Assembly: GCA_963809925.1 (NCBI GenBank)
Contig: CAWELH010000002.1
Span: 22,077 to 86,076, forward strand
From: an uncultured Bacteroidales bacterium
Lineage (GTDB): Bacteria > Bacteroidota > Bacteroidia > Bacteroidales > GCA-2748055
DNA length: 64,000 bases
Reading direction: 5' to 3'
Position 1 is the stretch's first letter. Each line of letters begins with the position of its first letter. This document shows positions 4,393-51,419 of this stretch, piece after piece. A program made the translations under genes and the position numbers. The notes under the pieces are model-generated. The model was not told the DNA's origin. It saw only the letters and a list, made by a program, of their open reading frames with translations, and did no database searches.

Positions 4393-5215
4393 ATGAAAAC
4401 AAAAATACTCCTGCTGCTTACCTTCTTAGCAGCATGTATTGTAACGTATGGTCAGTCCACGGAGTACAGGACAAAGATGAACGTAGAATACTACGACGAT
4501 GCCGTAAGTCTGAAAGATGCGTACATCGCTCAGCAATGCGTACTTGACATTTACTATCCTGTCAATGTAAAAAATTTTGCCACTATTGTCTGGTTCCATG
4601 GCGGAGGACTCACAGGTGGAGAGAAAGAGCTCCCCGCTGCCCTGAAAGAAAAAGGCGTATGTGTGATCGGAGTAAGTTACCGCTTATACCCAAAAGTGAA
4701 AGCGCCGGTTTATATCGAGGATGCCGCAGCTGCTGTAAGCTGGGTGTTTAAAAATATTGAGCGCTTTGGTGGCGATCCATCGTCCATATTTGTTTCCGGT
4801 CACTCTGCCGGCGGCTACCTGACCCTGATGATCGGATTAGACAAATCGTGGCTGGGTAATTTTGGTATCGACGCTGACAAGAATTGCGGGGCTCATCCCT
4901 TTCAGTGGACACACCATCACTCATTTTACCGTGAGAAAAGAGCGTGGCATACCCGAAACCAGACCAATTGTCGACAGCCTGGCACCACTATACCATGTCC
5001 GGCCTGATGCTCCTCCCCTATTACTAATTACCGGTGACAGGGAACTGGAGATGCTCGGAAGATATGAGGAAAATGCCTACCTGATGCGGATGATGAAAGT
5101 TTGTGGCCATACCCATACAAAATTATACGAATTAGATGGCTACGGGCATGGCATGACAGAACCCGCGTTCCCGTTGCTTTTGCTTGAAGTTCAAAGAATT
5201 ATGAATGATAAATAA
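4393..5215 (+). pseudogene. Alpha/beta-hydrolase (carboxylesterase-like) interrupted by a +1 frameshift near 4880
   Basis: ORF 4393..5007 carries a signal peptide, the 'HGGGLTGG' oxyanion motif and the 'GHSAGG' nucleophile elbow. Its sense sequence ends at '...NFGIDADK'. Homology continues in the next frame (ORF 4862..5215) as 'IAGLIPFSGHTITHFTV...DGYGHGM'. One extra base in 'gacaagaattgcg' joins the two frames. Confidence 0.7.
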
Positions 5216-35824: not shown

Positions 35825-36643
35825 ATGGCTGATATTTCAAAACTTTGCATACACACGATAACAACCAAATCTTGGCCGGTTGAGGTTGCTGCAGAGCGAT
35901 ATGCAGCTGCAGGAGTTAAGGGAATATCTGTATGGCGGCAATATCTGCAGGACAGGAGCATCACCGGCACGGGTGAAATGATCAGGTCCTACGGCCTTAG
36001 TATTGTTTCCCTTGTACGAGGTGGGTTTTTTGCTTCTGCCGATAAAAAAAAGCGGCAGGATGCCATTTCAGAAAACTTTAAGGCACTTGATGAGGCAGCC
36101 GGGCTGGGCGCTCCACTCATTGTTCTCGTGTGCGGAGCCGACCCCGGGCAATCACTGGATGAATCCAGAAAACAGATCGTTGCCGGGATTGAAGCATTGC
36201 TGCCTCTGGCCGGGCAACTGGGTGTTAAACTTGCCATAGAGCCTCTTCATCCCATGTATGCCGATACCAGATCGGCCATTAATACAATAAAGCAGGCTAA
36301 CGATATTGCAGAGCAGGTTTCCTCCCCTCTTTTGGGTGTGGCCGTGGATGTATACCACCTCTGGTGGGATCCTGACCTTGAACAGCAGATTAAACGGTGT
36401 GGGATGAACGGCCACTTATTTGCCTATCATATCTGCGACTGGAACAGTCCGACGACAGACATGCTTAACGACCGCGGACTTATGGGCGAAGGCTGTATCC
36501 CGGTTAAGCAGATCAGCCGTTGGGTTGAGGACGCCGGATTTTCAGGATACCATGAAGTCGAAATCTTTTCTGATAAATTCTGGGAACGGAATCAGGATGA
36601 CTTCCTGAAAAGTATTACCGAAGCATATCTTAATCATTCATAA
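35825..36643 (+). CDS. Xylose-isomerase-like TIM-barrel protein (sugar phosphate isomerase/epimerase family)
   Basis: The protein is 272 aa. The pattern 'LAIEPLHP...', 'VAVDVYHLWWD' and 'HEVEIFS' marks the metal-ligand strands typical of AP_endonuc_2 / TIM-barrel family members. It starts 2 nt after the upstream stop. Confidence 0.7.
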   Translation: MADISKLCIHTITTKSWPVEVAAERYAAAGVKGISVWRQYLQDRSITGTGEMIRSYGLSIVSLVRGGFFASADKKKRQDAISENFKALDEAAGLGAPLIVLVCGADPGQSLDESRKQIVAGIEALLPLAGQLGVKLAIEPLHPMYADTRSAINTIKQANDIAEQVSSPLLGVAVDVYHLWWDPDLEQQIKRCGMNGHLFAYHICDWNSPTTDMLNDRGLMGEGCIPVKQISRWVEDAGFSGYHEVEIFSDKFWERNQDDFLKSITEAYLNHS

Positions 36644-36659
36644 ACGATATTTAAGACCA

Positions 36660-37808
36660 ATGACAAAAGTACACAAAGCAGGGATCATCATGAATGGCGT
36701 CACCGGCAGGATGGGGACCAATCAGCATCTGATGCGCTCCATTGTCGAGATCATAAGGCAGGGAGGTGTTGCGCTTTCCAACGATGAAGTTATCATGCCC
36801 GACCCCGTTCTTGTGGGCAGAGACCAGGGAAAACTCGATAAGCTGAAAGCCATGTCTGGAATAAAAAAGACCAGCACCGACCTTGACAAGGTCCTTTCCG
36901 ATCCCGAAAATATTATCTACTTCGATGCCCAGACTACCGGCAGGCGGGCGGATGCTGTACGAAAAGCCGTGGCGGCCGGGAAACATATATATTGTGAGAA
37001 ACCGATTGCAACAGATCTTGAAACTGCCCTTGAACTTTACAACATATGCAAGGATGGTGGTATCCGTCATGGCGTAGTACAGGATAAACTGTGGCTCCCC
37101 GGTCTCCTGAAATTAAAGCGACTAATCCAGAATGATTTTTTCGGAAGGATTCTCTCTGTTAGGGGCGAATTCGGTTACTGGGTGTTTGAGGGCCATACTG
37201 TGCCGTCACAGCGCCCGTCATGGAATTACAGAAAAGAGGATGACGGCGGCATAATTGTAGATATGCTGTGCCACTGGAGGTATGTCCTGGACAATATTTT
37301 CGGTAAAGTAAAAGCCGTATCATGCCATGGTGCCACGCACATCACCGAACGAGTGGATGAGCAGGGTAGAAAGTACCAATGTACTGCCGACGATTCTGCC
37401 TATTCAACATTTGAACTGGAAAATGGCATCATCGCGCATTTTAATTCGTCATGGTGTGTCCGTGTAAAGCGGGACGACCTTTTGACCATCCAGGTCGACG
37501 GAACCAAAGGTTCTGCTGTCGCGGGACTCAGGGAATGCTATACACAACACTACGGCAATACACCGAAACCTGTCTGGAATCCGGACGTTCCACAATCCAT
37601 CGATTTTTACAACGGTTGGTCAAAAATGCCTGACCAGGAATTTTACGATAATGCATTCAAAGTACAATGGGAACTCTTTCTGAAACACGTATTCAGAGGC
37701 GACTCCTTTCCATGGGATATGAAAGAGGGAGCAAAAGGTGTTCAGCTTGCCACGGCTGGACTTGAAAGCTGGGCGAAACGTAAGTGGGTGGATATCCCGG
37801 AATTATAA
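36660..37808 (+). CDS. Gfo/Idh/MocA-family NAD(P)-dependent oxidoreductase
   Basis: An N-terminal Rossmann region 'AGIIMNGVTGRMG' and the 'HIYCEKPIA' (EKP) motif are followed by a C-terminal alpha/beta domain. Confidence 0.8.
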   Translation: MTKVHKAGIIMNGVTGRMGTNQHLMRSIVEIIRQGGVALSNDEVIMPDPVLVGRDQGKLDKLKAMSGIKKTSTDLDKVLSDPENIIYFDAQTTGRRADAVRKAVAAGKHIYCEKPIATDLETALELYNICKDGGIRHGVVQDKLWLPGLLKLKRLIQNDFFGRILSVRGEFGYWVFEGHTVPSQRPSWNYRKEDDGGIIVDMLCHWRYVLDNIFGKVKAVSCHGATHITERVDEQGRKYQCTADDSAYSTFELENGIIAHFNSSWCVRVKRDDLLTIQVDGTKGSAVAGLRECYTQHYGNTPKPVWNPDVPQSIDFYNGWSKMPDQEFYDNAFKVQWELFLKHVFRGDSFPWDMKEGAKGVQLATAGLESWAKRKWVDIPEL

Positions 37809-37929
37809 ACCCGGCTTCGTGATAGATCTAGGTAGATAGGTAGGGAAATACAGCAAATAATTCCGTTATATTTACAGGGAGTTCCTATCAGCCCGGCATC
37901 CGCCTTCATGGAAAATAATTGGAAGGAAT

Positions 37930-38700
37930 ATGAAAAAAACAGCATTAATCACAGGCAGTACAAGAGGAATCGGTTTTGGGATTGCCAAAGCACTTTCACA
38001 GGAAGGGTACGATCTTGCCATCAACGGTAGGCGTCCCGAATCAGAAGTTGGACCGGTGATTGATGAATTAGCTTCCTCCGGATCCAACGTCCTTTATTGT
38101 CAGGGAGATATAAGTTCACGCGAAGCACGACTGGCTATGATCGGCAAGGTGAAATCTCATTTTGGAAAATTAAATGTTCTTATCAACAATGCAGGCGTTG
38201 CACCCAGGGAACGTCGAGATATTCTGGAAGCCGGCGAGGAGAGCTTTGAGTACATTATCAGGACAGACCTGCAGGGTGCCTACTTCCTGATGCAGGCCGC
38301 TGCGCACTGGATGATCAGCCAGAAAGAAGAAAACAAGGAATTTCAAGGCTGCATGATCAATATATCCTCTGTTTCAGCGACACAGGCTTCGGTAAATCGG
38401 GGCGACTATTGTATTGCCAAAGCAGGGTTGAGTATGGCCACACAACTTTTTGCAGTCAGATTGGGAGAATACAATATCCCGGTTTATGAGATCAGACCTG
38501 GCATTATTATGACCGATATGACCTCAGGCGTGAAGGAAAAGTATGACCGAATGCTTTCAGAGGGACTTTGCTTACAAAACCGCTGGGGCATGCCTGAAGA
38601 TGTGGGAAAAGCTGCGGCAGCCCTTGCCAGAGGCGATTTTCCTTATTCAACAGGACAAGTTGTAATGGTCGACGGTGGCATGACGGTTGGAAGGTTATAA
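37930..38700 (+). CDS. SDR-family oxidoreductase (3-oxoacyl-ACP-reductase-like)
   Basis: It has 'ALITGSTRGIGFGIA', 'NNAG' and the catalytic 'YCIAK'. Confidence 0.85.
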   Translation: MKKTALITGSTRGIGFGIAKALSQEGYDLAINGRRPESEVGPVIDELASSGSNVLYCQGDISSREARLAMIGKVKSHFGKLNVLINNAGVAPRERRDILEAGEESFEYIIRTDLQGAYFLMQAAAHWMISQKEENKEFQGCMINISSVSATQASVNRGDYCIAKAGLSMATQLFAVRLGEYNIPVYEIRPGIIMTDMTSGVKEKYDRMLSEGLCLQNRWGMPEDVGKAAAALARGDFPYSTGQVVMVDGGMTVGRL

Positions 38701-38730
38701 TCATAATAATAAAAACTAACAGATATCAAA

Positions 38731-38964
38731 ATGGATACAGCCCGGAAGAAGAAATACTGGAAATGGTGTTGTCTGGCGGCAATACTATTAAGTATCGTTG
38801 CTTTCACTCCACTGGTTATTCCTGCAGGTGTATATAAACCGATGCTATTCGGTATCCCCTATACACTATGGACGGGTTTTCTGGTGACTGTTGCGCTTGT
38901 AACGATTACTTTTATCGGAACAAGAGTTCATCCCGGCTTACACGATGGGGAGGAAAAGAAATGA
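38731..38964 (+). CDS. Small DUF3311-type membrane subunit paired with the following symporter
   Basis: The protein is 77 aa with two TM helices and 'PAGVYKPMLFGIPYTLW'. Its TGA overlaps the next ATG (ATGA at 38961-38964). Confidence 0.65.
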   Translation: MDTARKKKYWKWCCLAAILLSIVAFTPLVIPAGVYKPMLFGIPYTLWTGFLVTVALVTITFIGTRVHPGLHDGEEKK

Positions 38965-40361
38965 CAGCATGGATTTGGATTCTCGGGGCTGTTTATGCCG
39001 CCATGCTGGTCATGGCCTCACTTCGTTCGTATAAAAAGGATCGCACCGCGGAAGATTTTATGCTTGCCGGCTCCAATGTCGGTATATTACTGGGTGTATT
39101 AACCTTTGCGGCTGCACTGTTCAGTACATTCACATTCCTTGGTATGCCCGATTTTTTCCGCATCAACGGAATCGGTGCATGGATCTTCCTGGCCCTATCG
39201 GATGGTGCCATGGTCTTTTTCATCCTGTGGTTTGGATTCCATATCCGCACAAAGGTGAAGGAAAAGGGCTTCCGCGGTGTTGCAGGATTGCTGTCAAACT
39301 GTTATGAAAACCGATGGGCCGGTTATGTCATTTTCCTCAGTGCGTTTTTGTTCCTGATCCCATATGTGGGTATACAGATCCAGGGTATTGCCATATTCAT
39401 GAATGCAGCCTTTCCGGGCTCACTACCTGCCTGGGCCTGGTCCGCGGCTATCGTCGTTGTGATGCTTATATACAGTGAAATAGGAGGATTCAAAGCCATT
39501 ATTTACAGTGATGCCATCCAGGGACTTTTATTATTGGTGGTGATATGGATTATCGGAGCTGCCTGTCTGCATCACTTTGGCGGCTTGAAGGAAATGTTCG
39601 AGACGATTGGCCGGTCGGATGAAAAATTACTGTCGACACCGGGTCCGCAAGGGCTTTTCACACCCCAGTTTCTGATCGCTTCCCTATTGGTTATTATCCT
39701 TATACCGGCTACGCAGCCACAATTCACTACAAGGCTCGTCGTAATGAAAAGCATGAAAACCATGCATCTTATGGCGGTTGCCGTTGGTGTTTTCGCTATT
39801 CTGGTCATTATACCTACCATTTTCATCGGATTGTACGGTGCGGAGAAATACAGCGGAATCGGCCGTGACAGCTTTTTTGCCCATGCTTTTCTGAACGACC
39901 GGCCGGCTTTCGTTGCCGCACTGGCAGTCATCGGACTCATTGCAGCCGGCCTGTCCACCACCAATGCCCAGATCTTTGCCCTCGGTTCGGAACTGCGGGG
40001 ACTAATGCATGGGGACGAACGAAAAGTCATGGTCAGAACAAAAATCGGTATATTTTTCTTCTCCCTCGTTGCACTGGCTTTCTCACTGGTAGTCAGCGAC
40101 CAGATCGCACTTCTCGCCAGGGTGAGCTTCACAGGAACAGGGATGATGGGGCCCCTCATTATCCTGGGGATCCTCAGTGACAGAAAAATATCTTCCTATA
40201 TGATATGGACGTCACTGGCTGGATTGCTTGTATTTGTTCTATCACTTGCAGGTTACCTACCCAGCACAGTGGCAGGCCTCAGACTAGACCTGTTACTAAT
40301 CATATCATTGAGTTTGCTGGCTGTTATATTTTATTTGACGGGGAAAAAGCCGGCGAGATAG
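38961..40361 (+). CDS. Sodium:solute symporter (SSS family)
   Basis: I take ATG 38961 as the start ('MTAWIWILGAVYAAML'). There are about 12-13 hydrophobic helices, and 'EDFMLAGSNVG' is the typical SSS N-terminal motif. Confidence 0.8.
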   Translation: MTAWIWILGAVYAAMLVMASLRSYKKDRTAEDFMLAGSNVGILLGVLTFAAALFSTFTFLGMPDFFRINGIGAWIFLALSDGAMVFFILWFGFHIRTKVKEKGFRGVAGLLSNCYENRWAGYVIFLSAFLFLIPYVGIQIQGIAIFMNAAFPGSLPAWAWSAAIVVVMLIYSEIGGFKAIIYSDAIQGLLLLVVIWIIGAACLHHFGGLKEMFETIGRSDEKLLSTPGPQGLFTPQFLIASLLVIILIPATQPQFTTRLVVMKSMKTMHLMAVAVGVFAILVIIPTIFIGLYGAEKYSGIGRDSFFAHAFLNDRPAFVAALAVIGLIAAGLSTTNAQIFALGSELRGLMHGDERKVMVRTKIGIFFFSLVALAFSLVVSDQIALLARVSFTGTGMMGPLIILGILSDRKISSYMIWTSLAGLLVFVLSLAGYLPSTVAGLRLDLLLIISLSLLAVIFYLTGKKPAR

Positions 40362-40442
40362 TAATGTTATACAAAAAAAATTGATTGATTTATACATTGA
40401 TAATCAATTAATTATCCTTTATTTTCAAAACGAATATTCCAA

Positions 40443-40471
40443 TTCAGGGATGAATGTCATTCATCCCTGAA
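40443..40471. promoter_or_regulatory. Perfect 29-bp palindrome between the symporter and desaturase genes
   Basis: TTCAGGGATGAATG-T-CATTCATCCCTGAA has 14-bp arms. It lies 82 nt after the symporter stop and 197 nt before the desaturase ATG. Neither strand has a flanking U-tract. Confidence 0.5.
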
Positions 40472-40667
40472 AACCGTTATTGAACTGCTAAGAGTTAGAT
40501 TGACCACATTTTTTTACCGGTTAAGCCCTCAAATTTCATAAAAGTCCAATTGCCTCCTAACTTTGTTGAAATTCTAACAAGTAGCATACTAAATCACATG
40601 TTCGAGTTTTGGTATTCTGCCAGGTTTATTGACCACAGATAGGCAACTAAATGAAAACTCAAAAAGG

Positions 40668-41774
40668 ATGAAACCAACAGATATAAAATTTCCTAACAAT
40701 ATTCAAAGTGATTTTGTGAATGAACTCCGCAGGCAGGTTCGAAACTATTTCGAAGAGAATCACATATCGAAATACGGTAATCCACGTATGTTTGTAAAGA
40801 CAGTGTTTATGTTTTTACTTTTCTTTGTACCCTATTTTCTTATGTTGACACATGTTATTATCAATCCATCCCTGATGCTGGTAATGTGGATAATAATGGG
40901 ATTTGGAGTGTCGGGCATCGGACTTTCGGTTATGCACGATGCAAATCACAGGTCATATTCAAAGAATCAGAATGTAAACAGGGGACTTTCGCTGTCACTG
41001 AATTTCGTAGGAGGATTCTCCCCGACCTGGCAGTATCAGCACAACACTTTGCACCATGGATACACTAATATTGATGGTTTTGATGAAGACATTGACCCGG
41101 GTAAAATTCTGAGGTTATCTCCGGATAAACCATATTATAAAATTTACCGTTTTCAGCAGTTTTATGCCTGGTTTTTCTATGGACTAATGACGCTGACCTG
41201 GACCATTGACAAAGATTTCAGGCAATTATTCCGTTATAAAAGAGAGGGAGTGGAACTCAGCCAGAAAAGGTCATTTGGAAGGCTACTAACGGAGCTGATC
41301 GTGTCTAAGGTCCTTTACTATACATATATGTTGGTTATCCCAATCATTTTCCTCCCGATACCATGGTGGATGGTAGTTATCTTCTACTTCATCATGCATC
41401 TTGTGAGCGGTTTCATGCTTACAATAATTTTTCAGACCGCGCACGTCATGCCATCATCCGAATACCCTAATCCGGACAAAGGTGGATCGATGGAAAACAA
41501 TTGGGCAATTCATCAATTACTAACAACCACAGATTACGCCAGAGGTAACAGGTTATTTTCATGGTACGTAGGTGGCTTGAACTTTCAGATAGAGCATCAT
41601 TTATTTCCGAATATATGTCATGTGCACTATCACAAAATTTCTAAAATCGTGGAGGCAACTGCCAAAAAGTACAATATCCCCTATCATGTACAACCCGGTT
41701 TTTTAAGTGCGCTGAGGGAGCATTTCAAGATGTTGAGGATCCTTGGGAGACCTGTTCAGTTGCAGCAGGCATAG
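40668..41774 (+). CDS. Membrane fatty-acid desaturase
   Basis: It has three histidine boxes, 'HDANH', 'HNTLHH' and 'QIEHHLFP', with four TM helices between them. ATG 40668 is preferred over TTG 40629. Confidence 0.85.
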   Translation: MKPTDIKFPNNIQSDFVNELRRQVRNYFEENHISKYGNPRMFVKTVFMFLLFFVPYFLMLTHVIINPSLMLVMWIIMGFGVSGIGLSVMHDANHRSYSKNQNVNRGLSLSLNFVGGFSPTWQYQHNTLHHGYTNIDGFDEDIDPGKILRLSPDKPYYKIYRFQQFYAWFFYGLMTLTWTIDKDFRQLFRYKREGVELSQKRSFGRLLTELIVSKVLYYTYMLVIPIIFLPIPWWMVVIFYFIMHLVSGFMLTIIFQTAHVMPSSEYPNPDKGGSMENNWAIHQLLTTTDYARGNRLFSWYVGGLNFQIEHHLFPNICHVHYHKISKIVEATAKKYNIPYHVQPGFLSALREHFKMLRILGRPVQLQQA

Positions 41775-42230
41775 CACTCAACACATTCCGATAGTTAGTA
41801 TTCAGTAATCATTATTCCTCATTAGTGATCAGCGATCGTTTAGGATGTGAAAAACTGCTCACATAAGGATACTGTTGATTCATTATTGCAAATTCAATGT
41901 CATATTGAAACTATAGCTATCCAAAATTATAAAGGAGCGATAGGTCTTTTTGCCGCACTAATTCATCCGTTTATTTGTCAAAAATCAGGATCAACTATTT
42001 CAGTAGTTGATAACTTTTCATCAAAAAGCTGAAAATAGGACGCTGATATTTGGGGGGTGAAAACTATTAAGGGGCGGCGTGTTGGAAGGCGGGGGTGGGG
42101 CCCCTCTTAACACCAGACAATCTCGAAGGAACAAAGCCCCTTACTATGTTATTTGGTGATCCACCTACGCTGAAGCTACGGTGGACGCAGTTTGGTAAAT
42201 TGAAGAGTGAGCTATAGAACCTTATCCTAT

Positions 42231-43410
42231 CCATGGGCAAAACCATGGCTATTGTTGGTGAATGCCGCCGGCATGGAAGAAGCGTTTCTACAAACACCTC
42301 TCATCCTCTCCCCTTCACTATCCATGGGCAAAACCATGGCTATTGTTGGAGAATGCCTCCGGCATGGAAGAAGCGTTTCTACAAACACCTCTCATCCTCT
42401 CCCCTTCACTATCCATGGGCAAAACCATGGCTATTGTTGGAGAATGCCTCCGGCATGGAAGAGTCGTTTCTACAAACACCTCTCATCCTCTCCCCTTCAC
42501 TATCCATGGGCAAAACCATGGCTATTGTTGGTGAATGCCTCCGGCATGGAAGAAGCGTTTCTACAAACACCTCTCATCCTCTCCCCTTCACTATCCATGG
42601 GCAAAACCATGGCTATTGTTGGAGAATGCCTCCGGCATGGAAGAAGCGTTTCTACAAACACCTCTCATCCTCTCCCCTTCACTATCCATGGGCAAAACCA
42701 TGGCTATTGTTGGAGAATGCCTCCGGCATGGAAGAAGCGTTTCTACAAACACCTCTCATCCTCTCCCCTTCACTATCCATGGGCAAAACCATGGCTATTG
42801 TTGGAGAATGCCTCCGGCATGGAAGAAGCGTTTCTACAAACACCTCTCATCCTCTCCCCTTCACTATCCATGGGCAAAACCATGGCTATTGTTGGAGAAT
42901 GCCTCCGGCATGGAAGAAGCGTTTCTACAAACACCTCTCATCCTCTCCCCTTCACTATCCATGGGCAAAACCATGGCTATTGTTGGAGAATGCCTCCGGC
43001 ATGGAAGAAGCGTTTCTACAAACACCTCTCATCCTCTCCCCTTCACTATCCATGGGCAAAACCATGGCTATTGTTGGTGAATGCCTCCGGCATGGAAGAA
43101 GCGTTTCTACAAACACCTCTCATCCTCTCCCCTTCACTATCCATGGGCAAAACCATGGCTATTGTTGGAGAATGCCTCCGGCATGGAAGAAGCGTTTCTA
43201 CAAACACCTCTCACCCTCTCCCCTTCACTATCCATGGGCAAAACCATGGCTATTGTTGGTGAATGCCGCCGGCATGGAAGAGTCGTTTCTACAAACACCT
43301 CTCATCCTCTCCCCTTCACTATCCATGGGCAAAACCATGGCTATTGTTGGAGAATGCCTCCGGCATGGAAGAAGCGTTTCTACAAACACCTCTCATCCTC
43401 TCCCCTTCAC
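42231..43410 (+). repeat. Tandem array of thirteen 91-bp units (12 full units plus one 88-bp unit)
   Basis: CCATGG recurs at exact 91-bp spacing: 42231, 42322, 42413 ... 43323. The consensus is CCATGGGCAAAACCATGGCTATTGTTGGAGAATGCCTCCGGCATGGAAGAAGCGTTTCTACAAACACCTCTCATCCTCTCCCCTTCACTAT. Only four variable sites are seen (unit positions 29, 37, 51-52 and 74). Confidence 0.97.
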
Positions 43411-43482
43411 TTCCTAACCTCCTAACTTCCTAACTTCCTAACTTCATCACCTCATAACTCCATCACCTCATAACTCCAAAAC
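43411..43482 (+). repeat. Degenerate 8-bp microsatellite ([T/C]TC[C/A]T[A/C]AC, 9 units) directly abutting the 91-bp array
   Basis: The nine consecutive units read ttcctaac ctcctaac ttcctaac ttcctaac ttcatcac ctcataac tccatcac ctcataac tccaaaac. Confidence 0.9.
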
Positions 43483-43561
43483 TCCGCCCAGAAATTTCAA
43501 AAATTTTCATACCTTTATTTATCCAAACAACCATACTTCAAACATAATCAATTCAAACTAC

Positions 43562-44434
43562 ATGATGAGAACAATTCTGCTTACATCCCTTACACTTTTT
43601 CTTTTCAACGTGCTGCTGCCTGCACAGGAATATCGTCATCATGATGAAATTTTGCTTTGGCCCGGCGGTGCCCCGGGAAGCGTACAGGCTAACTGGCCGT
43701 GGGAAGGATACAAGGAGGAGTGGCAAATTGATTCTGCCAGTAACAAGGAGATGGTGATCTTTGTGACCGATCCGACCATTCAGGTCTTCCTTCCGCCAAT
43801 GGAAAAAAATACGGGCACAGCGGTCGTCGTTTGTCCCGGCGGTGGGTATAATATTGAAGTTATAGGAAAGGAAGGGTATGACATTGCAAAAATACTGAAT
43901 GAAATGGGTATCGCCGCTATCATTCTGAAATACAGACACTATGATATTTTTGCTGCGCGGGATGATGCCCAACGGGCCATCCGGTATACACGTTATCATG
44001 CAAAGGAATGGAATATCGACCCGGAAAAAATCGGCCTTGGCGGATTTTCAGCCGGAGGGCACTTGTCGCTTCATACAGCTGCCAGTCTGGAAGTTCCCTT
44101 GCCGAAAGGCTGGAAAGCAGATGACATCGATGCGGTCAGCAACCGTCCCGACTTCCTGATGCTGGGCTATCCCGGGACAAAGATGCCTAAAGGTGTAAAT
44201 TTTACAGAAAATATGCCGCCGGCTTTTATTGTTGTTTCGGGAGACGACGGAATGATGCCCTTGTCTTTCGACCTGTATCATTCGCTGAAGAATATGGGTG
44301 TACCTGCCGAATTGCACATCTTCCAGAAAGGTGGTCATGGTTTTGGTGCCGGAACACCGGAATGTAACTGCAGCAATTGGCTTGAAATATTCAGAAACTG
44401 GCTGCTAACCAATTCATTTATCAGCAATCCCTGA
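43562..44434 (+). CDS. Secreted alpha/beta-hydrolase esterase (acetyl-esterase-like)
   Basis: It has a signal peptide 'LLTSLTLFLFNVLLPAQ', 'VVCPGGGY', the nucleophile elbow 'GGFSAGGHL' and 'GGHGF' near the C-terminus. Confidence 0.75.
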   Translation: MMRTILLTSLTLFLFNVLLPAQEYRHHDEILLWPGGAPGSVQANWPWEGYKEEWQIDSASNKEMVIFVTDPTIQVFLPPMEKNTGTAVVVCPGGGYNIEVIGKEGYDIAKILNEMGIAAIILKYRHYDIFAARDDAQRAIRYTRYHAKEWNIDPEKIGLGGFSAGGHLSLHTAASLEVPLPKGWKADDIDAVSNRPDFLMLGYPGTKMPKGVNFTENMPPAFIVVSGDDGMMPLSFDLYHSLKNMGVPAELHIFQKGGHGFGAGTPECNCSNWLEIFRNWLLTNSFISNP

Positions 44435-44736
44435 AACAGATTCTAATCCTCCGATTACGATTCCAGGAAACCGGTTCTTAAACTTGAATAACAAATAGAT
44501 GGACTTCTCCTGTGAATTATCGTACCTTTTGGCTAACAAAACCATGTACAATTTTCATGGTGAAACTAACATTCTCAATACGGTAGACATCTTGTGAAAA
44601 ACAGGTAAATTCATACTCCTCGAAGTATACTATCCCTGGTTTATTTTAGCACCGACATATATTTTATTATCAGACATTTTAATGACCTGTCCATTAAGTT
44701 CAGGGGAAATCAAGCTTTCACTAAATGTAACTTATC

Positions 44737-47511
44737 ATGATTTCATGGCGCACATTTTTAGTTTTGGTTATACCAGGCTTCATCTGTCAAACACAGCTGA
44801 CAGCGCAAAGCACCGTCAGTCTGAGTGACTTCCACTTATTGTCATCCACGTTGACGCACGACGACGGGAACACCATCTCGCAGCCGGAATATGGTTCGGA
44901 CGTATACTGGTTTCCTGTAAAAATCCCTTCTACAGTTCTGTCAGCGCTGGTGAGTAACGGCATTTATCCGGATCCATATTCTGGTATGAATAATATGCTG
45001 ATCCCGGATGCATCAGACAGTTTCAATGTGCGTTACAATCTGGCGAAATACAGTTATCTCCCGGGTGAAGCCAATCCGTGGAAACAGCCTTATTGGTACC
45101 GGACAAATTTCAGGGTCCCGGCCGCAGATGAAGGAAAACATTTTGAGTTGATCTTCAAAGGTATAAACTACCGTGCTGCCGTTTGGCTTAACGGAGAACA
45201 GATTGCCGATTCATCGGAAATAGCCGGAATGTTTGGCGAGTTCTATCTTGATGTCAGCACTCAGATCAGGGCAGGCAAAGAAAACGGGCTGGCTGTAAAA
45301 ATATACCCTCTGGACTATCCAGGGTTACCCGCACAAGAACAACTTGAGGCTCTTGGCGATTTTTATGCCAACGGAGGTCCGACGGGCGATATCGGGAAAA
45401 ATGTGACCATGCTCTGTTCGGTTGGCTGGGACTGGATACCACCTGTCAGAGACCGCAACATGGGGATTTGGCAGCCCGTGTTATTACGTTCTACCGGACC
45501 TGTCACCATTGATCATCCGCATATAATTACTGCACTGCCCCAACTCCCTGATACCAGCCTTGCTGAGATCACCGTAGATGTACCTCTTACTAACCACAGT
45601 TTAAAAGTTATGGAGGGAACGCTGACAATACGGATAGAACCTGAAAATTTTAAGGGTGAGGGAATTTCCATTGCCAAAAGAGTGCGGATAAAGCCTGGTA
45701 TTACGCTGGTTTCAGGTTTCAACATCGATAATACCAAAGAACTGAAGATCAGGAATCCGCACCTTTGGTGGCCCGTTGGTTACGGCAATCAAGATCTGTA
45801 CACAATGCAGATCACATTCAGTGATGAGAAAGGAATCTCTGACAGGAACCAGACTGACTTTGGCATTAGAACTGTAAATACCCGTACTGTTGAAATAAGG
45901 GAATCACTTCGGAGAGATTTCTATGTAAATGGCAGAAGAATATTTCTGCTTGGGGGAGCCTGGGTGCCCGATATGATGTTGAACAGGGATTCAGCCAGAT
46001 ATGATCACGAACTTCAGCTTTGCCGGAATGCAAATCTTAACCTCCTAAGGATTTGGGGCGGAGGTATCACTCCTCCCGATGTCTTCTTCGACCTTGCAGA
46101 TAAATACGGTATGCTTGTCTGGTCGGATTTCTGGGTAACTGGTGATACTCAGGGTGAATTCAGGGGCGATCCCGGCTGGCCGTTGGAGGGAACTGTATTT
46201 ACCTCCAATGTTGTCAGCACGATCCTCCGACTTCGAAATCATCCCTCACTGTTGGTATGGACAGGTGGGAACGAAGGTCATGCCCGTAAAGAACTTTATG
46301 ATGCCATGAGAGACAACCTTGCCAGCCTGGATGGCACCAGACCATTCATCTCCTGCTCATCAGGGTATGCCCATCTCCCTGAAGGATGGAAGCGTTCATG
46401 GCCCGATGACCAAGCACCAGGTGTATATAGCAGCGGACCTTACTCATGGCAGGATCCATTAAAATATTATGAACTTTCAAACCATGCCAAAGACTGGGTT
46501 TTTAAGGATGAGACTGGCATTCCCTCTCAACCGCCTTACCGTATCATGCCCAAAATCATTCCCGATCTGGTATGGGATAAGAGTCTCCCCTTCCCTCTTA
46601 ACAATTCGTGGGGCTATCATGACGCGGCAACGGGAAACGGAAAATACGACCTGTATTATAAGGAGATGGTCAGACGATTCGGTGAGCAGACAAGTATGAA
46701 AAGTTTTTGTGATGCCATGCAAGTCATGAATGCCATGGGATACCAGGGAATTTTCGAGGCGGCTGAACATAAGTTGAATGAGGCTGGCGGTATTATGCTC
46801 TGGAAACTGAATGCCGCTTTTCCAAGTGTTGTATGGCAGATCTACGATTGGTTCCTGATGCCGAACGCAGGTTACTACTTTATACAGAACGCCTGCAAGC
46901 CGGTACACGTCCAGTTTAACCGCGATGATTCCACCGTTGTTGTCATAAATAGACCATACAATCAATTAAGATCGTTCGAAGTAACAGCTGATATTTACTC
47001 GGAAAAATCAAAACTTATTGGGCATAAGGAGGTGTCAGTAGATCTGAATGCATCGGAGATAAAAGAATGTTTTTCCCTTGCAGGAGTACTCAAGGATTCA
47101 GAAGAATTGACATTTATCTTATTGCGATTGAAAGACGCATCAGGGGCGCTTGTTTCAGCCAATACCTACTGGATTTCACGAGATGGTAATTTTAAGGGAA
47201 TGAAAGATATGCCTGTATCTGAACTGAAGGTTGGTGTGCTTGAGTATACCAGGGATGGGGCTGAGGCAACCTGCCGGTTACAATTCACAAATCCTGGGTT
47301 GTACCTTGCCTCTTTTATCAATCCGCAGGTACGTATTGCCGGTGAGGAAATACTGCCGTCCTACTGGTCCGACAATTATTTTACACTTAAACCCAAAGAA
47401 TCGGTAGTTGTCACAGTAAGGTTTCCGCTTGAATACTCTGCCATTGGAAAACCTGAACTCAGGATTGAGGGATGGAATGTCAAAATGGAAGATACCCTTC
47501 TTGAACCATAA
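44737..47511 (+). CDS. Glycoside hydrolase family 2 (beta-mannosidase / exo-beta-D-glucosaminidase-like)
   Basis: The protein is 924 aa with a signal peptide. 'FKGINYRAAVWLNGEQI', 'GWDWIPPVRDRNMGIW', 'NLNLLRIWGGG' and 'WTGGNEG' follow the GH2 sugar-binding, Ig and TIM-barrel order. Confidence 0.7.
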   Translation: MISWRTFLVLVIPGFICQTQLTAQSTVSLSDFHLLSSTLTHDDGNTISQPEYGSDVYWFPVKIPSTVLSALVSNGIYPDPYSGMNNMLIPDASDSFNVRYNLAKYSYLPGEANPWKQPYWYRTNFRVPAADEGKHFELIFKGINYRAAVWLNGEQIADSSEIAGMFGEFYLDVSTQIRAGKENGLAVKIYPLDYPGLPAQEQLEALGDFYANGGPTGDIGKNVTMLCSVGWDWIPPVRDRNMGIWQPVLLRSTGPVTIDHPHIITALPQLPDTSLAEITVDVPLTNHSLKVMEGTLTIRIEPENFKGEGISIAKRVRIKPGITLVSGFNIDNTKELKIRNPHLWWPVGYGNQDLYTMQITFSDEKGISDRNQTDFGIRTVNTRTVEIRESLRRDFYVNGRRIFLLGGAWVPDMMLNRDSARYDHELQLCRNANLNLLRIWGGGITPPDVFFDLADKYGMLVWSDFWVTGDTQGEFRGDPGWPLEGTVFTSNVVSTILRLRNHPSLLVWTGGNEGHARKELYDAMRDNLASLDGTRPFISCSSGYAHLPEGWKRSWPDDQAPGVYSSGPYSWQDPLKYYELSNHAKDWVFKDETGIPSQPPYRIMPKIIPDLVWDKSLPFPLNNSWGYHDAATGNGKYDLYYKEMVRRFGEQTSMKSFCDAMQVMNAMGYQGIFEAAEHKLNEAGGIMLWKLNAAFPSVVWQIYDWFLMPNAGYYFIQNACKPVHVQFNRDDSTVVVINRPYNQLRSFEVTADIYSEKSKLIGHKEVSVDLNASEIKECFSLAGVLKDSEELTFILLRLKDASGALVSANTYWISRDGNFKGMKDMPVSELKVGVLEYTRDGAEATCRLQFTNPGLYLASFINPQVRIAGEEILPSYWSDNYFTLKPKESVVVTVRFPLEYSAIGKPELRIEGWNVKMEDTLLEP

Positions 47512-47628
47512 CGAATTCGCCTATGCCGGAGTTTGACGCAGTGATCATTTGGAACTCAGCAGCTCCTGACCGAATACGTCACATCAATTTTCATGTTGAG
47601 TCCCTACATGGCATATGAAACGGGCCAT

Positions 47629-47656
47629 AAAAAAACTGCCCGGGTTCCCCGGGCAG
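47629..47656 (-). terminator. Rho-independent terminator of tRNA-Lys
   Basis: On the minus strand a CTGCCCGG(G)/(C)CCGGGCAG stem (8-9 bp) is followed immediately by T7. It lies 11 nt downstream of the tRNA 3' end. Confidence 0.8.
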
Positions 47657-47667
47657 CTAACTGACGG

Positions 47668-47740
47668 TCGGTCCAGAGGGATTCGAACCCTCGACCCCGA
47701 GATTAAGAGTCACGTGCTCTGCCAGCTGAGCTATGGACCG
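47668..47740 (-). tRNA. tRNA-Lys (anticodon CUU)
   Basis: I folded the 73-nt cloverleaf by hand: acceptor CGGTCCA/TGGACCG, D arm GCTC-AGCTGGCA-GAGC, anticodon arm CGTGA-CTCTTAA-TCTCG (one U-U mismatch), T arm GAGGG-TTCGAAT-CCCTC, discriminator A. CCA is not encoded. Confidence 0.9.
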
Positions 47741-47964
47741 AATTGCGAATGCAAAATAAATGAAAATTGCTGAACTCTGAAAGAATTCCCTTTTTAAAAT
47801 ATAAAGGAAGCGTATGCCCTTTTTGGCATGATCTGGTTTAAAGTACGTTGCGCGATTTTCTCTGCACCAAAATACCTCTGGGAAGGATTGTCTAACTGGT
47901 GATTTTTAAGAGAACGCAACGTGAAAGCGAATTTTTTCATCTCATACACAAGAAAAAACTGCCA

Positions 47965-48876
47965 ATGAAACCAATGCACGCTCTCATCTTAGGATTAATA
48001 TTCTTGATTCCGGCATGTGAAGAAGACAATTTTACATGGCCGAGATCCTCCGACGGGATATCTATCCGAATCGGTGAGAACACGACGTTCAATTCGTGGG
48101 ATATCGATTACTACGACTATTCAACTCATCTTGTATATCTAAAGGAGGGCCGTTCCTTTCCCGATAGTTTTAAGGGTAGTGATCGCTTTACGGTTTATGC
48201 AGGAGAGGAGGAGATATACAGTGGTACGCTTCTCCCCGGATATGCTTCATATCTTCCGGAAGGACCAGTTATCAGAGTACAACCTGCATTCTACCAGGAC
48301 TATATCATCTCGATCGGATTCATTGACAGAATCGATTCTTCCGGTAATTCACTCCCTGATCCACGGAGTGACGAAAGGATTGAGAGTGCATTGAAGAATC
48401 ATCATCAATATCTTGGCGGTTTGGAATGTGAAATTATTTCGATCAGGCAGGCGTCATCGGGTAAGCTGTCCCTTGATCTGAGACTCAGTAATCATGATGC
48501 CTTCGATTATTTATTCCTCGATCCTGAGAAGATGGGAAGTGATCTTTTTCATTATTTTACTAACGGCTTGTCTGTACGCAATATAAAGCAGCCATTGATT
48601 TACAGTCATCATATTCAGATAGCAGAGCCTGAACCCTGGAACTCCTGGAATGTCAAATGGCTCTCGCTGATACGAGGACATTCAACGGCCGATATTTCAC
48701 TTATCTATGACAGTTTTGATAAAATACCCCCAGGGAATTACATCGCCGATTATACATTCCCGGGTTTAAGCTACCAGGTCGGGCGGGAAGATCTTGTGCT
48801 GTCATCAAGAAGGAAAGAAGAAAGAATATGGTTGGGGATGATAAGCGCATCCAAAAATTTCATTATCAGACAATAA
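47965..48876 (+). CDS. Hypothetical lipoprotein
   Basis: I take ATG 47965 as the start ('MKPMHALILGLIFLIPACEE' is a lipobox signal). I recognise no other motif. Confidence 0.55.
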   Translation: MKPMHALILGLIFLIPACEEDNFTWPRSSDGISIRIGENTTFNSWDIDYYDYSTHLVYLKEGRSFPDSFKGSDRFTVYAGEEEIYSGTLLPGYASYLPEGPVIRVQPAFYQDYIISIGFIDRIDSSGNSLPDPRSDERIESALKNHHQYLGGLECEIISIRQASSGKLSLDLRLSNHDAFDYLFLDPEKMGSDLFHYFTNGLSVRNIKQPLIYSHHIQIAEPEPWNSWNVKWLSLIRGHSTADISLIYDSFDKIPPGNYIADYTFPGLSYQVGREDLVLSSRRKEERIWLGMISASKNFIIRQ

Positions 48877-48917
48877 ACGGGGACCAGGAAACAATTAAGT
48901 TGTCAAGGCATTCCTAC

Positions 48918-50066
48918 TTATACATCTTCCTGATCAATAGACGAATGAAGAAGTCGTCCGTCCATATCGTCACGGTCTGTCTCCGGTTCCAAAGGAAAAC
49001 TTACCGGTTTATGATCACGGTTTGAACGGTAAATGGCTGTGAAAAGCTCAACGGTCTTCCGCCCTGCCGTCCCGTTAATCAAAGGGTCCCGGTTTTCTTC
49101 CAACGCTTCGAGAAAATCCTGCAACTGGCATTGCATGTACCATGTATTCGGATCAATCGCACCAAAGGCTTTACTATCCGCATCGTTCCAAATCTTCATT
49201 TTATCCTCCTCGCCAGGGACTGTCCACAAATCGAGGATGGGGGGTTCTGAGATATTTGTCATGCCGGCGATAAACATGGCACCTCCGTCTGTCTGCACTC
49301 CGACTGACGCCCCATTCTCCCCATGAACGTGTACCTTACCATAAATTCCGGGTTTCTGCGAATTGCTTACGAGAAGGTTTCCAATGGCTCCATTCCTGAA
49401 CCTGATGATGGCAGCGGCTGTATCTTCCACTTCAATATACGGATGGTTGAGGTTTTTCCAGATACCATAGACTTCTTCGATTTCGCCCATGTACCAAAGG
49501 AGGATATCAATTTGATGAGGAGCCTGGTTGACCAGTATGCCTCCCCCCTCCCGTTTCCAGGAACCGCGCCAGGCATCAGAATCATAGTAGGCCTTATCTC
49601 TCCACCCAAGGATCGCGACTTCACCGAGAACGGGTTTACCCATCTTCGCCTGGTCAATGGCTTCCTTCACCCGCTGAACCGGTGGGCACCACCTCCGTTG
49701 TCCCACCACGCCAAGACGTACACCTGCCTGTTTACATCCATTTATAATATCATCGGCGTCTTCGAGTGTTGAAGCAAGGGGTTTTTCCACCAGGACCGAA
49801 GCGCCGGCACTGGCGGCTTCTAAGGCAGGTTGCTTATGAAAGGGATGAGGCGTGCAAATGATCACCAGGTCGATGTGATACCTCTGAACCATGGATGTGA
49901 TATCCTGACAAGGCTTGGCATTATACTTTTTAGCAAACTTTTCTGCCGTTTCGAGCGTCCTGCTTGATACGGCAGCAAGTTTGGCATTCGCCAGGTTTTG
50001 GATTGCTCCGGCATGCAAATGCGCTACTTTGCCGCAACCAACAATGGCAATATTATATGTCTTCAT
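48918..50066 (-). CDS. Gfo/Idh/MocA-family oxidoreductase
   Basis: 'IAIVGCGKVAHLH' is a Rossmann motif, 'VLVEKPLA' is the EKP motif, and the C-terminal domain fits the family. Confidence 0.8.
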   Translation of the reverse strand: MKTYNIAIVGCGKVAHLHAGAIQNLANAKLAAVSSRTLETAEKFAKKYNAKPCQDITSMVQRYHIDLVIICTPHPFHKQPALEAASAGASVLVEKPLASTLEDADDIINGCKQAGVRLGVVGQRRWCPPVQRVKEAIDQAKMGKPVLGEVAILGWRDKAYYDSDAWRGSWKREGGGILVNQAPHQIDILLWYMGEIEEVYGIWKNLNHPYIEVEDTAAAIIRFRNGAIGNLLVSNSQKPGIYGKVHVHGENGASVGVQTDGGAMFIAGMTNISEPPILDLWTVPGEEDKMKIWNDADSKAFGAIDPNTWYMQCQLQDFLEALEENRDPLINGTAGRKTVELFTAIYRSNRDHKPVSFPLEPETDRDDMDGRLLHSSIDQEDV

Positions 50067-51273: not shown

Positions 51274-51325
51274 GGGGTGAAAATCTGCCTGGAGGGGTGA
51301 AAATCGCTCCATAGGGGTGAATTTT
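51274..51325 (+). promoter_or_regulatory. Three direct GGGGTGAA(A/T)(A/T)T(C/T) boxes phased at exactly 20 bp in a divergent promoter region
   Basis: GGGGTGAAAATC occurs at 51274 and 51294, and GGGGTGAATTTT at 51314. The boxes lie between the ADH start (51110, minus strand) and the lipoprotein start (51420, plus strand). Confidence 0.5.
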
Positions 51326-51419
51326 ACAGTTTTGTTTTTTCATTTTTACCAAAATCCATTGGTTACGCAACCACAGCTATGCTACTTGCATCCATCATAA
51401 ACACCTTTCAGAGCTTTGC

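Follow-up and report, generated by a model that had tools for sequence, protein, structure and literature searches.

Between a fatty-acid desaturase gene and the gene of a secreted alpha/beta-hydrolase, in an intergenic spacer on the chromosome of a member of the Bacteroidota, a tandem array was found that is probably a non-coding, hypervariable minisatellite (VNTR). The array occupies positions 42227..43411 on the forward strand of the window, i.e., of the whole 64-kb stretch of DNA that was analysed, and consists of 13.0 units of 91 bp, as supported by Tandem Repeats Finder (TRF), a unit table and pattern matches. An earlier note on this DNA had offered a protein-coding frame-rotating repeat, an RNA or DNA element and a neutral minisatellite as candidate explanations; the minisatellite fits best, the coding repeat did not hold up, and a role of a hairpin at the RNA or DNA level retains a small probability. 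The repeated module would be composed of a structured intergenic element of ~70 nt and ~21 nt of adjoining pyrimidine-rich simple sequence, and this module would have been amplified head to tail. Replication slippage, together with gene conversion or unequal recombination among the units, may then have produced both the homogeneity and the changes in copy number. The stop-free frames and an open reading frame (ORF) of 394 codons would be by-products of the unit sequence and not of selection for translation, and any function would most likely be that of the conserved hairpin, in DNA or in RNA form, as a putative protein-binding site or as a transcript-structuring or terminating element.

The array, its surroundings and its relatives

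TRF reports a period of 91, 13.0 copies, 98% matches and 0% indels for 42227-43411, and the consensus of the unit is CTATCCATGGGCAAAACCATGGCTATTGTTGGAGAATGCCTCCGGCATGGAAGAAGCGTTTCTACAAACACCTCTCATCCTCTCCCCTTCA. The units abut directly, all in direct orientation and with no unique sequence between them, which confirms the thirteen near-identical head-to-tail units described in the earlier note and corresponds to the near-identical direct repeats with units of ~10-100+ bp that characterize bacterial minisatellites. A pattern scan of the 64-kb window yielded 13 exact or near-exact unit matches, all inside the array, and no further copy elsewhere in the window. Unit-by-unit comparison revealed five variable nucleotide positions, or four sites, the number given before, if the adjacent change at 55-56 is taken as one: A33T in units 1, 4, 10 and 12, T41G in units 1 and 12, AG55-56GT in units 3 and 12, and T78C in unit 11 only. 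The pattern of variants across the units is non-random. Each unit contains a conserved core of ~70 nt (42318..42387 in the representative unit 2, forward strand), which is also found in other genomes, there joined to different tails and spaced at different periods, and a pyrimidine-rich tail (42376..42408 in unit 2, forward strand), seen directly in the sequence as the last 33 nt of the unit, which are devoid of G. Within the family the tail is conserved least: it differs in the genome L013 and is short or different in the related ORFs P0124, P0125 and P0126.

Both flanking genes are encoded on the forward strand like the array. The desaturase (40629..41774; Pfam FA_desaturase, E = 5e-36) ends 452 nt upstream of it, and the acetyl esterase-like hydrolase (43562..44434; Pfam Abhydrolase_3, BD-FAE) starts 150 nt downstream. 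A REP-like leader hairpin, TCCACCTACGC-TGAA-GCTACGGTGGA (42160..42185, forward strand), precedes the array by about 40 nt. The motif of this hairpin, translated as DPPTLKLRRTQ, also adjoins the core in P0124 and P0126 of another genome; as a dispersed REP it has no other instance among the sequences compared. Downstream, TRF identified a trailer of imperfect 8-bp repeats, CTTCCTAA / CTCATAAC / CTTCATCA (43412..43485, forward strand), that is part of a G-free run of 109 nt (43377-43485) continuing the unit tail; octamers of this family are also found beside repeats in the sister clade. The window, part of a 506-kb contig, otherwise carries chromosomal genes of sugar and lipid metabolism and three T9SS-tailed proteins. 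Genes for a reverse transcriptase (RT), for defence or for mobile elements did not turn up among the window's ORFs of at least 250 aa and the smaller ones within 36000-50000, and for RT and defence genes this agrees, within that scope, with what had been noted from the sequence.

A second assembly, L001, contains the array at the same locus, with flanks that, across 9,715 nt, contain a single indel and are 99.887% identical to those of the window. Its array comprises about 18 units (about 14.7 + 3) compared to 13 here, so that copy number is polymorphic between close genomes of one species, as is characteristic of a VNTR. It is interrupted by ~70 bp of non-unit sequence, five of its units measure 90-94 bp and divergence is about 2-5%; L001 is a long-read-style metagenome assembly, and some of these in-repeat indels may be consensus errors. 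Common to both assemblies are a first unit with T33/G41 and similar last three units, and in L001 the loop of the leader hairpin carries an insertion of 19 nt.

In the sister clade, the array is absent from the syntenic desaturase-esterase spacer (esterase 72% identical) of all four genomes compared (L091, L096, L097 and L098). This spacer is 213 bp long in L096 and holds an OMP beta-barrel gene in L098, the same gene being frameshifted in L091 and L097. L096 carries an array of 2.3 copies of a 111-bp unit, which has only the hairpin and CTAT in common with the 91-bp unit, and together with a 49/73-bp minisatellite of the sister clade it indicates a lineage rich in intergenic tandem repeats. 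The core itself occurs outside of the locus. A search of 185,579 GTDB species representatives with an 18-mer query gave 89 matches, of which 88 are single and extend over at most 28 nt; the only real one is L013, with a single core copy (94% over 70 nt) that carries a TGA and a TAA. P0126 contains two cores 75 nt apart and P0125 two cores ~147 nt apart, and the ORFs P0124, P0125 and P0126 hold the core only, the DNA being deduced from the translations in each case. P0124 and P0126, whose sequences are unlike, share a 1.16-Mb contig that belongs to another genome, and P0125 is carried by a contig of 771 kb. Two patterns gave no match in JGI metagenome contigs, viral contigs gave none either, and the plasmid and phage collections contain nothing similar to the array.

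Conserved hairpins and a possible role at the RNA or DNA level

Each of the 13 units contains hairpin 1, the inverted repeat CCATGG-GCAAAA-CCATGG (42322..42339 in unit 2, forward strand). It is followed by CTATTGTTGG and was flagged as weakly terminator-like by the scan, with 13 such sites in the array vs 1.9 expected. Hairpin 1 is invariant in 17 of 17 distinct aligned units, and in the 111-bp repeat of L096 it occurs as CCACGG-GCAAAA-CCGTGG, which amounts to one compensatory pair (U-A to C-G). To judge from these sequences, the conservation of hairpin 1 hints at constraint, and to call the array purely neutral may be too strong. A second, GC-rich hairpin, UGUUGGAG-AAUGC-CUCCGGCA, is predicted by the minimum free energy (MFE) fold (42344..42364 in unit 2, forward strand) and includes the variable positions 33 and 41.

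An alternative to the minisatellite reading is that the array has a function as RNA or DNA, acting as weak-terminator or transcript-structuring hairpins that insulate the esterase gene against read-through from the desaturase gene, as tandem small RNAs or as a cluster of CCATGG-N6-CCATGG protein-binding sites, with an effect tuned by copy number. We regard this as possible but rather unlikely. It would be in line with the excess of terminator-like sites, with the invariance of hairpin 1 and its compensated form in L096, with the array being co-oriented with both neighbouring genes and with a two-unit fold that is more stable than shuffled sequences (z = -3.8 on the forward and -4.2 on the reverse strand). 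Read-through into the esterase gene is conceivable, because no exact TAnnTTTG, the Bacteroidota-type -7 box, lies on the forward strand between the array and the esterase start, and tandem small RNAs have a precedent in NsiR1, with 12 tandem copies that each have their own promoter (PMC4030482). Against it stand a stem of just 6 bp, the lack of a T-run after the L096 hairpin, and the absence of the array from the sister clade together with its difference between near-identical strains. Furthermore, Rfam returned no match for the array at the gathering threshold or at E <= 1, and base pairs within the array covary no more than those of shuffled sequences, with little variation among the units; for the pair 33/41, seven A-U, three U-G and seven unpaired cells were counted, which is not above shuffles. 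TAnnTTTG is also absent from both strands within 42227-43411 and is present upstream of several window genes. No sigma-70-like site and no tRNA or tmRNA was detected within the array.

Two further ideas at the DNA level were rejected. CCATGG occurs 18 times in the window outside the array, comparable to other palindromes, and hence is not avoided as a restriction site would be. A replication origin with a DnaA-box cluster does not fit either, as CTATCCATG agrees with TTATCCACA at only 6/9 positions (read by eye), and there is neither a skew switch nor a dnaA gene nearby.

Open frames, coding potential and assembly

The consensus unit has no stop triplet in the three forward frames, compared to five (2 TGA, 3 TAG) on the reverse strand. 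Forward stops in the array are limited to the TGAs that A33T creates, three in one frame (42259, 42532 and 43078) and one in a second (43260). All three frames are closed upstream of the array (42201, 42208 and 42215) and downstream of it (43415, 43423 and 43431). An ORF of 394 codons, present in the ORF list as 394 aa, starts with ATG and runs through the array (42233..43417, forward strand); we judge it to be spurious. The stop-free frames follow from the consensus sequence, in which TA always precedes a pyrimidine and TG never precedes an A; CATGG and CTAT are each present three times. All of this bears out the earlier observations from the sequence, i.e., the stop asymmetry between the strands, the 3/1/0 distribution of forward stops over the frames in units 1, 4, 10 and 12, the bracketing stops (within 42201-42217 and 43415-43433), the ATG-started ORF and the four ATGs in each unit, of which three have a CATGG context. 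The note's rough guess that a stop-free unit arises by chance in ~1% of cases was near the mark, as 0.8% of mononucleotide and 1.6% of dinucleotide-preserving shuffles are stop-free; for the ~70-nt core alone it is 0.6%. Given that the feature was chosen post hoc, the stop-free unit is unusual and not extreme; it is a real oddity, and composition explains only part of it. Other repeats of the lineage share the property on their CT-rich strand, namely the unrelated 49/73-bp minisatellite at one sister-clade locus (shuffle probability 18-62%) and the 111-bp hairpin-sharing unit of L096 (2-29%).

There is no selection against stops within the array. The commonest variant, A33T, creates a TGA and is present in 4/13 units here and in 6/18 units in L001. 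Since 13.6% of all possible single substitutions in the unit create a stop, one stop-creating site out of five variable ones corresponds to the neutral expectation. If the four TGA-bearing units are placed randomly among the 13, at least one frame is wholly open 44% of the time.

The earlier note had stressed a coding repeat. On such a reading, the array would be translated as a protein with a period of 91 aa, and the open frames would let the ORF survive the gain and loss of units and 1-nt indels. The low chance probability of the stop-free consensus (0.8-1.6%), the long ATG-started ORF bracketed by stops in all frames and an ORF of 364 codons in L001 that crosses three indel-bearing units would agree with such a frameshift-proof protein, which we nevertheless consider very improbable. 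No protein family beyond the repeat ORFs was found, and neither codon usage nor amino-acid composition is gene-like. The codon score of the ORF is -0.06 per codon, below every one of 25 real genes (0.086-0.257), and its translation lacks Asp and has H, W, C, P and M in excess. A periodic translation product would include peptides such as TMAIVGECLR and FYKHLSSSPLHYPWAKPWLLLENASGMEEAFLQTPLILSPSLSMGK. Homologues beyond the same repeat element were found neither in 5.8 billion clusters by a word-indexed search nor in 1.84 billion exhaustively scored cluster representatives, and a third protein search with a chimeric six-frame query returned P0123 only. No PDB entry matches the ORF, Pfam gave only the sub-threshold GAF_2 (22 bits vs a cut-off of 28.6), and a precomputed PF19811 tag could not be reproduced. 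The best AF2 model has a pLDDT of 58 and a pTM of 0.37, with the other four of the five models at 24-40 (overall range 24-58); such low confidence of predicted models would not by itself be decisive against a protein. A PADLOC match to PDC-S02 (E = 1.5e-6) vanished with one period and weakened to E = 0.003 with two, and it was rejected as repeat-inflated because its score is additive over repeats.

Related copies keep neither the period nor the frame. The segment KKRFYKH / RKEFYQS / SKKFYCN appears in differing relative frames between copies, unit lengths in relatives vary (75, ~147 and 90-94 nt) and the L013 copy bears two stops, which is largely the pattern that the earlier note had named as speaking against its coding idea. 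On the forward strand, no TAnnTTTG box lies directly upstream of the ORF's ATG, the nearest one, at 41922, being on the reverse strand. The marks of a coding gene, i.e., homologues, a codon usage resembling that of genes, and conservation of period and frame, are thus missing, and the 394-codon ORF is most likely a by-product of the stop-free unit sequence that yields no protein. A minus-strand micro-ORF of 25 aa per unit (MRGVCRNASSMPEAFSNNSHGFAHG), with a purine-rich tract upstream, has a codon score of -0.13 and was taken as chance. It also seems far-fetched that the unit was shaped to hold three frames open, whether as a translated or ribosome-engaged array or as a ribosome-loading track in the long spacer of a desaturase-esterase transcript. 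Equally far-fetched is a version at the RNA level, in which the 13-18 CU-rich tails and hairpins would form a copy-number-tunable RNA sponge or insulator.

It is hardly credible that collapse or expansion of a repeat during assembly gave rise to the array or to its copy number: both assemblies look metagenomic, the L001 indels are concentrated in the repeat and frameshifts affect genes in related contigs as well as, once, the GH2 gene of L001, but the window copy has zero indels and non-random variants, unit variants are shared between two independent assemblies, and the 1.2 kb involved are readily spanned by long reads. A wholesale artefact is unlikely since the independent assembly L001 has the array at the same locus.

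In its present state, the finding chiefly serves as a warning. Gene callers made 'proteins' of 394, 364 and 93 aa from the repeat, which now stand in public databases, and the repeat-inflated match to a candidate defence family shows the risk of misannotation for such ORFs. The family combines a conserved 6-6-6 inverted repeat with neighbouring 8-bp microsatellites in spacers that differ between near-identical strains; it may help to type strains and to study how minisatellites originate from single-copy repeat elements. To count as a notable new mechanism, the array would have to be translated or to act as a regulatory RNA.

Comparison with known repeat systems

Several systems can be set aside on their defining features. 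A CRISPR array does not fit directly abutting units that have no unique spacers, and integron attC sites fail on their defining features. For a ToxI-like type III toxin-antitoxin system the downstream gene would have to encode an endoribonuclease toxin; it encodes an alpha/beta-hydrolase and has no PADLOC match. REP/BIME clusters are formed by alternating palindromes of ~35 nt, whereas the units here are all direct, 91 bp long and have internal inverted repeats of only 6-8 bp. The earlier note had also drawn an analogy to neo (never-ending ORF), the extrachromosomal cDNA that the reverse transcriptase of the DRT2 system synthesizes from a neighbouring ncRNA, and whose repeat keeps one frame, has one of three frames open and forms a promoter at the junction (PMC11100668). 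Concatenated repeats without stop codons are indeed shared, and the analogy breaks down at the defining features: the array is chromosomal, its unit is not divisible by three (91 = 3n+1), all three frames are open, and neither an RT (ORFs of at least 250 aa, smaller ones within 36000-50000) nor a structured ncRNA template (Rfam) was found next to it.

NsiR1 is encoded by 12 direct tandem repeats that have one promoter apiece, and heterocystous cyanobacterial genomes without exception keep the array close to hetF (PMC4030482). The array resembles it in having about a dozen direct intergenic repeats of similar size; unlike NsiR1, its units contain no TAnnTTTG or sigma-70-like box, as judged from canonical boxes only, and it is not kept in the sister clade, being absent at four syntenic sites. 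Neisserial intergenic mosaic elements (NIME or RS repeats) form arrays of intergenic units of 70-200 bp that are flanked by short repeats and represent sites of genome plasticity (PMC3184786). Arrayed intergenic units with short repeats at their flanks, at a site of genome plasticity, are likewise present here. NIME units vary among themselves and have 20-bp dRS3 inverted repeats at their borders, in contrast to the near-identical and directly abutting units of the array.

The pneumococcal BOX element (boxA-boxB(n)-boxC) is modular, with a variable internal tandem module, predicted RNA structure and, in some cases, ORFs (PMC3184786). The array is similar as a modular intergenic repeat with an internal module of variable number, predicted RNA structure and an ORF; boxA- or boxC-like end modules, terminal inverted repeats and an associated transposase were not found. 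BOX elements carry few boxB copies, and the copy number of 13-18 is far higher.

MIRUs (mycobacterial interspersed repetitive units) are intergenic units of 40-100 bp between co-oriented genes, often in tandem and with strain-polymorphic copy number, that hold ORFs and inverted repeats and are missing from the homologous site in related species (PMC3184786). MIRU ORFs overlap the flanking stop and start codons, by which they presumably couple translation (PMC3184786, PMC12548453). The present array is parted by stops in all three frames from both genes (the desaturase gene ends at 41774, the esterase gene starts at 43562), which lie 452 and 150 nt away. MIRUs are furthermore dispersed over ~40-50 loci per genome, while dispersal of the present element is weakly shown, by two or more ORFs that lie together on another contig, and the two elements have no sequence similarity and belong to different phyla. 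In unit size, location in a co-oriented spacer, polymorphic copy number, possession of an ORF and inverted repeats and absence from the site of a relative, the array nevertheless matches MIRU-VNTRs. It is a MIRU/BOX-like repeat and as such of a known kind, of a family that is itself undescribed and that belongs to a poorly sampled lineage of Bacteroidota.

The array and its open frames

The best-supported reading of the array is that of a lineage-specific, hypervariable, non-coding minisatellite. It occupies 42227-43411 in perfect register (period 91, 13.0 copies, 98% matches, no indels) between a fatty-acid desaturase gene (40629-41774, + strand) and the gene of a secreted alpha/beta-hydrolase, an esterase (43562-44434, + strand), which is followed by an intact GH2 glycosidase gene (44737-47511, 924 aa). 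No further copy of the unit was found within the 64-kb window. Comparison of the 13 units revealed five variable nucleotide positions, i.e., A33T in units 1, 4, 10 and 12, T41G in units 1 and 12, AG55-56GT in units 3 and 12, and T78C in unit 11. The 91-bp consensus contains no TAA, TAG or TGA in the forward frames and five stops on the reverse strand, and three of the four ATGs per unit lie in CATGG context. Within the array, forward stops arise solely as TGAs from A33T; one frame has three of them, a second has one, and the third stays open as the ORF 42233..43417 (394 aa). Stops close every frame on either side, at 42201, 42208 and 42215 before the array and at 43415, 43423 and 43431 after it. 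The description of units, variants, stops, ORF, bracketing and ATGs in the earlier note was right in every item, and its guess of about 1 percent for a stop-free unit is borne out by shuffling (0.8% of mononucleotide and 1.6% of dinucleotide-preserving shuffles).

The conserved core of ~70 nt by itself is stop-free in 0.6% of shuffles, so the oddity of the open frames extends beyond the pyrimidine tail. The unit is stop-free because a pyrimidine follows each of its four TA dinucleotides, G, T or C follows each of its six TG dinucleotides, and its final 33 nt contain no G; several of these TA and TG sit in repeated motifs (CATGG x3, CTAT x3). Given a stop-free consensus, four TGA-bearing units among 13 leave at least one frame open 44% of the time, making the long ORF unremarkable.

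The remaining window genes encode sugar-active enzymes, dehydrogenases and a two-component system, and three proteins carry a T9SS C-terminal sorting domain, a gene content that places the window in Bacteroidota. Reverse transcriptase, defence, transposase and phage domains were not seen among window ORFs of at least 250 aa, and no GC-skew switch occurs at the array locus. Three ORFs have no Pfam or PADLOC match (25937-28177, 746 aa; 47899-48876, 325 aa; 56929-58371, 480 aa). One copy of the motif GGGGTGAAAA lies in the GC-rich leader segment (42054-42115), and the spacer after the ADH gene (51274-51330) holds three direct repeats ~20 bp apart, two of them exact GGGGTGAAAA and the third GGGGTGAATT; across the window the count of GGGGTGAAAA is at chance level.

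The locus in the same species and in the sister clade

Among 5.8 billion protein clusters, the sole non-self match to the ORF translation was P0002, whose contig (L001, a second assembly of the same species) is syntenic with the window. Over 9,715 nt its downstream flanks differ from the window by 10 mismatches and one indel (99.887% identity). The array of L001 comprises 18 units (about 14.7 + 3) in two blocks split by a ~70-bp non-unit segment; five units range from 90 to 94 bp in length, and the density of substitutions is many times that of the flanks. As L001 is a long-read assembly, some of the repeat indels may be consensus errors; unit number and interruption differ regardless. Near-identical flanks around a differing array indicate the behaviour of a hypervariable VNTR, unlike that of a constrained gene. 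The sole flank indel breaks the GH2 gene of L001 (3855-6628) into 653 + 264 aa; the break may be a sequencing error or mark a true pseudogene.

The nearest other esterase shows 72% identity, and the gene order desaturase - X - esterase - GH2 is kept at four sister-clade loci. At none of the four (L091, L096, L097, L098) is X the array, which is therefore a lineage-specific gain. The desaturase-esterase spacer itself is plastic in this clade: it measures 213 bp in L096 (4788-5000), contains an intact 318-aa OMP_b-brl_2 beta-barrel gene in L098 (3978-4934), and holds frameshifted remnants of the same gene in L091 (6977-7934) and L097 (about 3882-4934). In L097 the desaturase, too, is in two pieces (200 + 151 aa), possibly through an assembly error.

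The lineage is prone to repeats. Directly 3' of the array, within a G-free run (43377-43485), the trailer 43412-43485 is an imperfect 8-bp microsatellite of CTTCCTAA, CTCATAAC and CTTCATCA. CTTCCTAA is the reverse complement of TAGGAAGT, which together with AGTTAGAA and TAGGGAGT represents the same octamer family in the sister clade, downstream of a Big_7 gene in 8 to 15 copies (L096 2240-2303, 8; L091 4310-4417, 13.5; L097 1283-1397, 14.1; L098 1297-1417, 15.1); its place is conserved and its number variable. Beside a tRNA gene, the sister clade also has an unrelated minisatellite of 49/50/73 bp, in which CATTCGTG CATTCGTG and a CT-rich tail occur; its copy number ranges from 3.7 to 7.1 by strain (L091 13687-14024; L097 10690-10870; L098 10687-10870; L096 9009-9362). 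L096 also has a 34-bp x4.6 tandem repeat (AACTTAGCGAAGCGATCTCACGACCAACGGGAGT) upstream of a CN_hydrolase gene (9684-9839).

The core element elsewhere

The 18-mer CCATGGGCAAAACCATGG gave 89 matches in 185,579 species representatives, of which 88 are single and extend at most 28 nt. The only match extended to 70 nt (94% identity) is a single core with two stops (TGA, TAA), another pyrimidine tail and flanking GT-rich 8-bp repeats. It lies in a ~290-nt low-GC segment (1-290) at the extreme end of a high-GC 406-kb contig (L013, MFD05684.bin.2.41), and this low-GC segment is probably a chimeric contig end in the species-representative genome. A Clostridia MAG (Pygmaiobacter; L083 6350-6371) matches CCATGGGCAAAACCATGGCTAT exactly over 22 nt, presumably by chance or as coding sequence.

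When 1.84 billion representatives were searched exhaustively with phmmer, two further short ORFs with the core alone emerged, and cluster look-up added a third. P0124 and P0126 share a 1.16-Mb contig of another genome, P0126 having two cores 75 nt apart; P0125, on a 771-kb contig, has two cores ~147 nt apart. The conserved segment after the hairpins reads KKRFYKH in the window and RKEFYQS or SKKFYCN in other copies, and its frame with respect to the first part changes between copies, which thus differ by indels that are not multiples of three. Conservation of the core is, as the compared copies suggest, at the nucleotide level, with no reading frame conserved. P0124 and P0126 run on into DPPTLKLRRTQ, which is what the REP-like hairpin TCCACCTACGC-TGAA-GCTACGGTGGA situated 40 nt upstream of the window array (42160-42185) encodes when translated, so core and REP-like hairpin seem to travel together. 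In L001 the loop of this hairpin carries a 19-nt insertion (about 757-801).

At another locus of L096 (2360-2615) a 111-bp x2.3 array, CT-rich on the - strand, has only CCRYGG-GCAAAA-CCRYGG-CTAT in common with the window unit and is followed, as in the window, by CT-rich sequence and 8-bp repeats; L091, L097 and L098 lack it at the corresponding site. One copy has a compensatory change (CCACGG...CCGTGG), the other a mismatched arm (CCACGG...CCATGA). Across the family, unit length thus takes values of 75, 91, 111 and ~147 nt.

Structural and coding readings, and known systems

A role as structured RNA or DNA was considered. A two-unit stretch folds more stably than its shuffles (z about -4 for each strand), and one unit is predicted to form hairpin 1 (6 bp, the inverted repeat CCATGG-GCAAAA-CCATGG) and hairpin 2 (8 bp), with GGAGA pairing to the CU-rich tail. 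Hairpin 1 with CTATTGTTGG was flagged as terminator-like 13 times versus 1.9 expected; its stem is short, and L096 has no T-run. Rfam gave no match even at E <= 1, covariation over 17 distinct units gave pair counts no better than shuffles (pair 33/41: 3 U-G cells versus 7 unpaired), and the promoter box TAnnTTTG, found upstream of several window genes (40558, 8520, 34382 among others), is missing from both strands of the array. The invariance of hairpin 1 together with the single compensatory change leaves room for a possible structural role of this hairpin. Restriction-site avoidance was rejected, as the rest of the window shows no avoidance of CCATGG.

The coding reading, stressed in the earlier note, fares worse, and the 394-aa ORF is a by-product. 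No homologues beyond the repeat element were found in protein cluster and exhaustive phmmer searches, the sole Pfam match is sub-threshold, and PDB sequences show no similarity. The codon log-likelihood is -0.06 per codon, compared with 0.086 to 0.257 for 25 Pfam-supported window genes and -0.2 to -0.6 for off-frames. The 91-aa period lacks Asp (6% expected) and is two- to three-fold enriched in His, Trp, Cys and Pro. The AlphaFold2 prediction without alignment (pLDDT 58, pTM 0.37; other four models 24-40) is weak evidence and lends the coding reading no support. The stop-creating A33T is the most frequent variant in both the window and L001 arrays; one of the five variable sites creates a stop where 13.6% of random substitutions do so, which makes stop creation neutral-like. 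A PADLOC match of the ORF to PDC-S02 was discarded as an artefact, a weak match summed across repeats.

That the opening of all frames is itself functional is very improbable. Freedom from stops on the CT-rich strand extends to the 111-bp unit and to the unrelated units of 49 and 73 bp (shuffle probability 18-62% for the 49-mer, 2-29% for the 111-mer); open CT-rich strands thus recur in these genomes as a by-product of composition.

The minisatellite would have originated by tandem amplification of a structured intergenic repeat element of ~70 nt together with adjoining CT-rich sequence, a mechanism we infer, and slippage or recombination may keep it homogeneous. The resemblance to DRT2 neo, which the earlier note had offered only as an analogy, is superficial, as neo is cDNA made by a reverse transcriptase, in frame and with one open frame (PMC11100668). 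Among known kinds, the array comes closest to MIRU-VNTR loci, whose hallmark of ORFs coupled to flanking genes it does not share, to pneumococcal BOX elements and to the NIME arrays of Neisseria (PMC3184786, PMC12548453).
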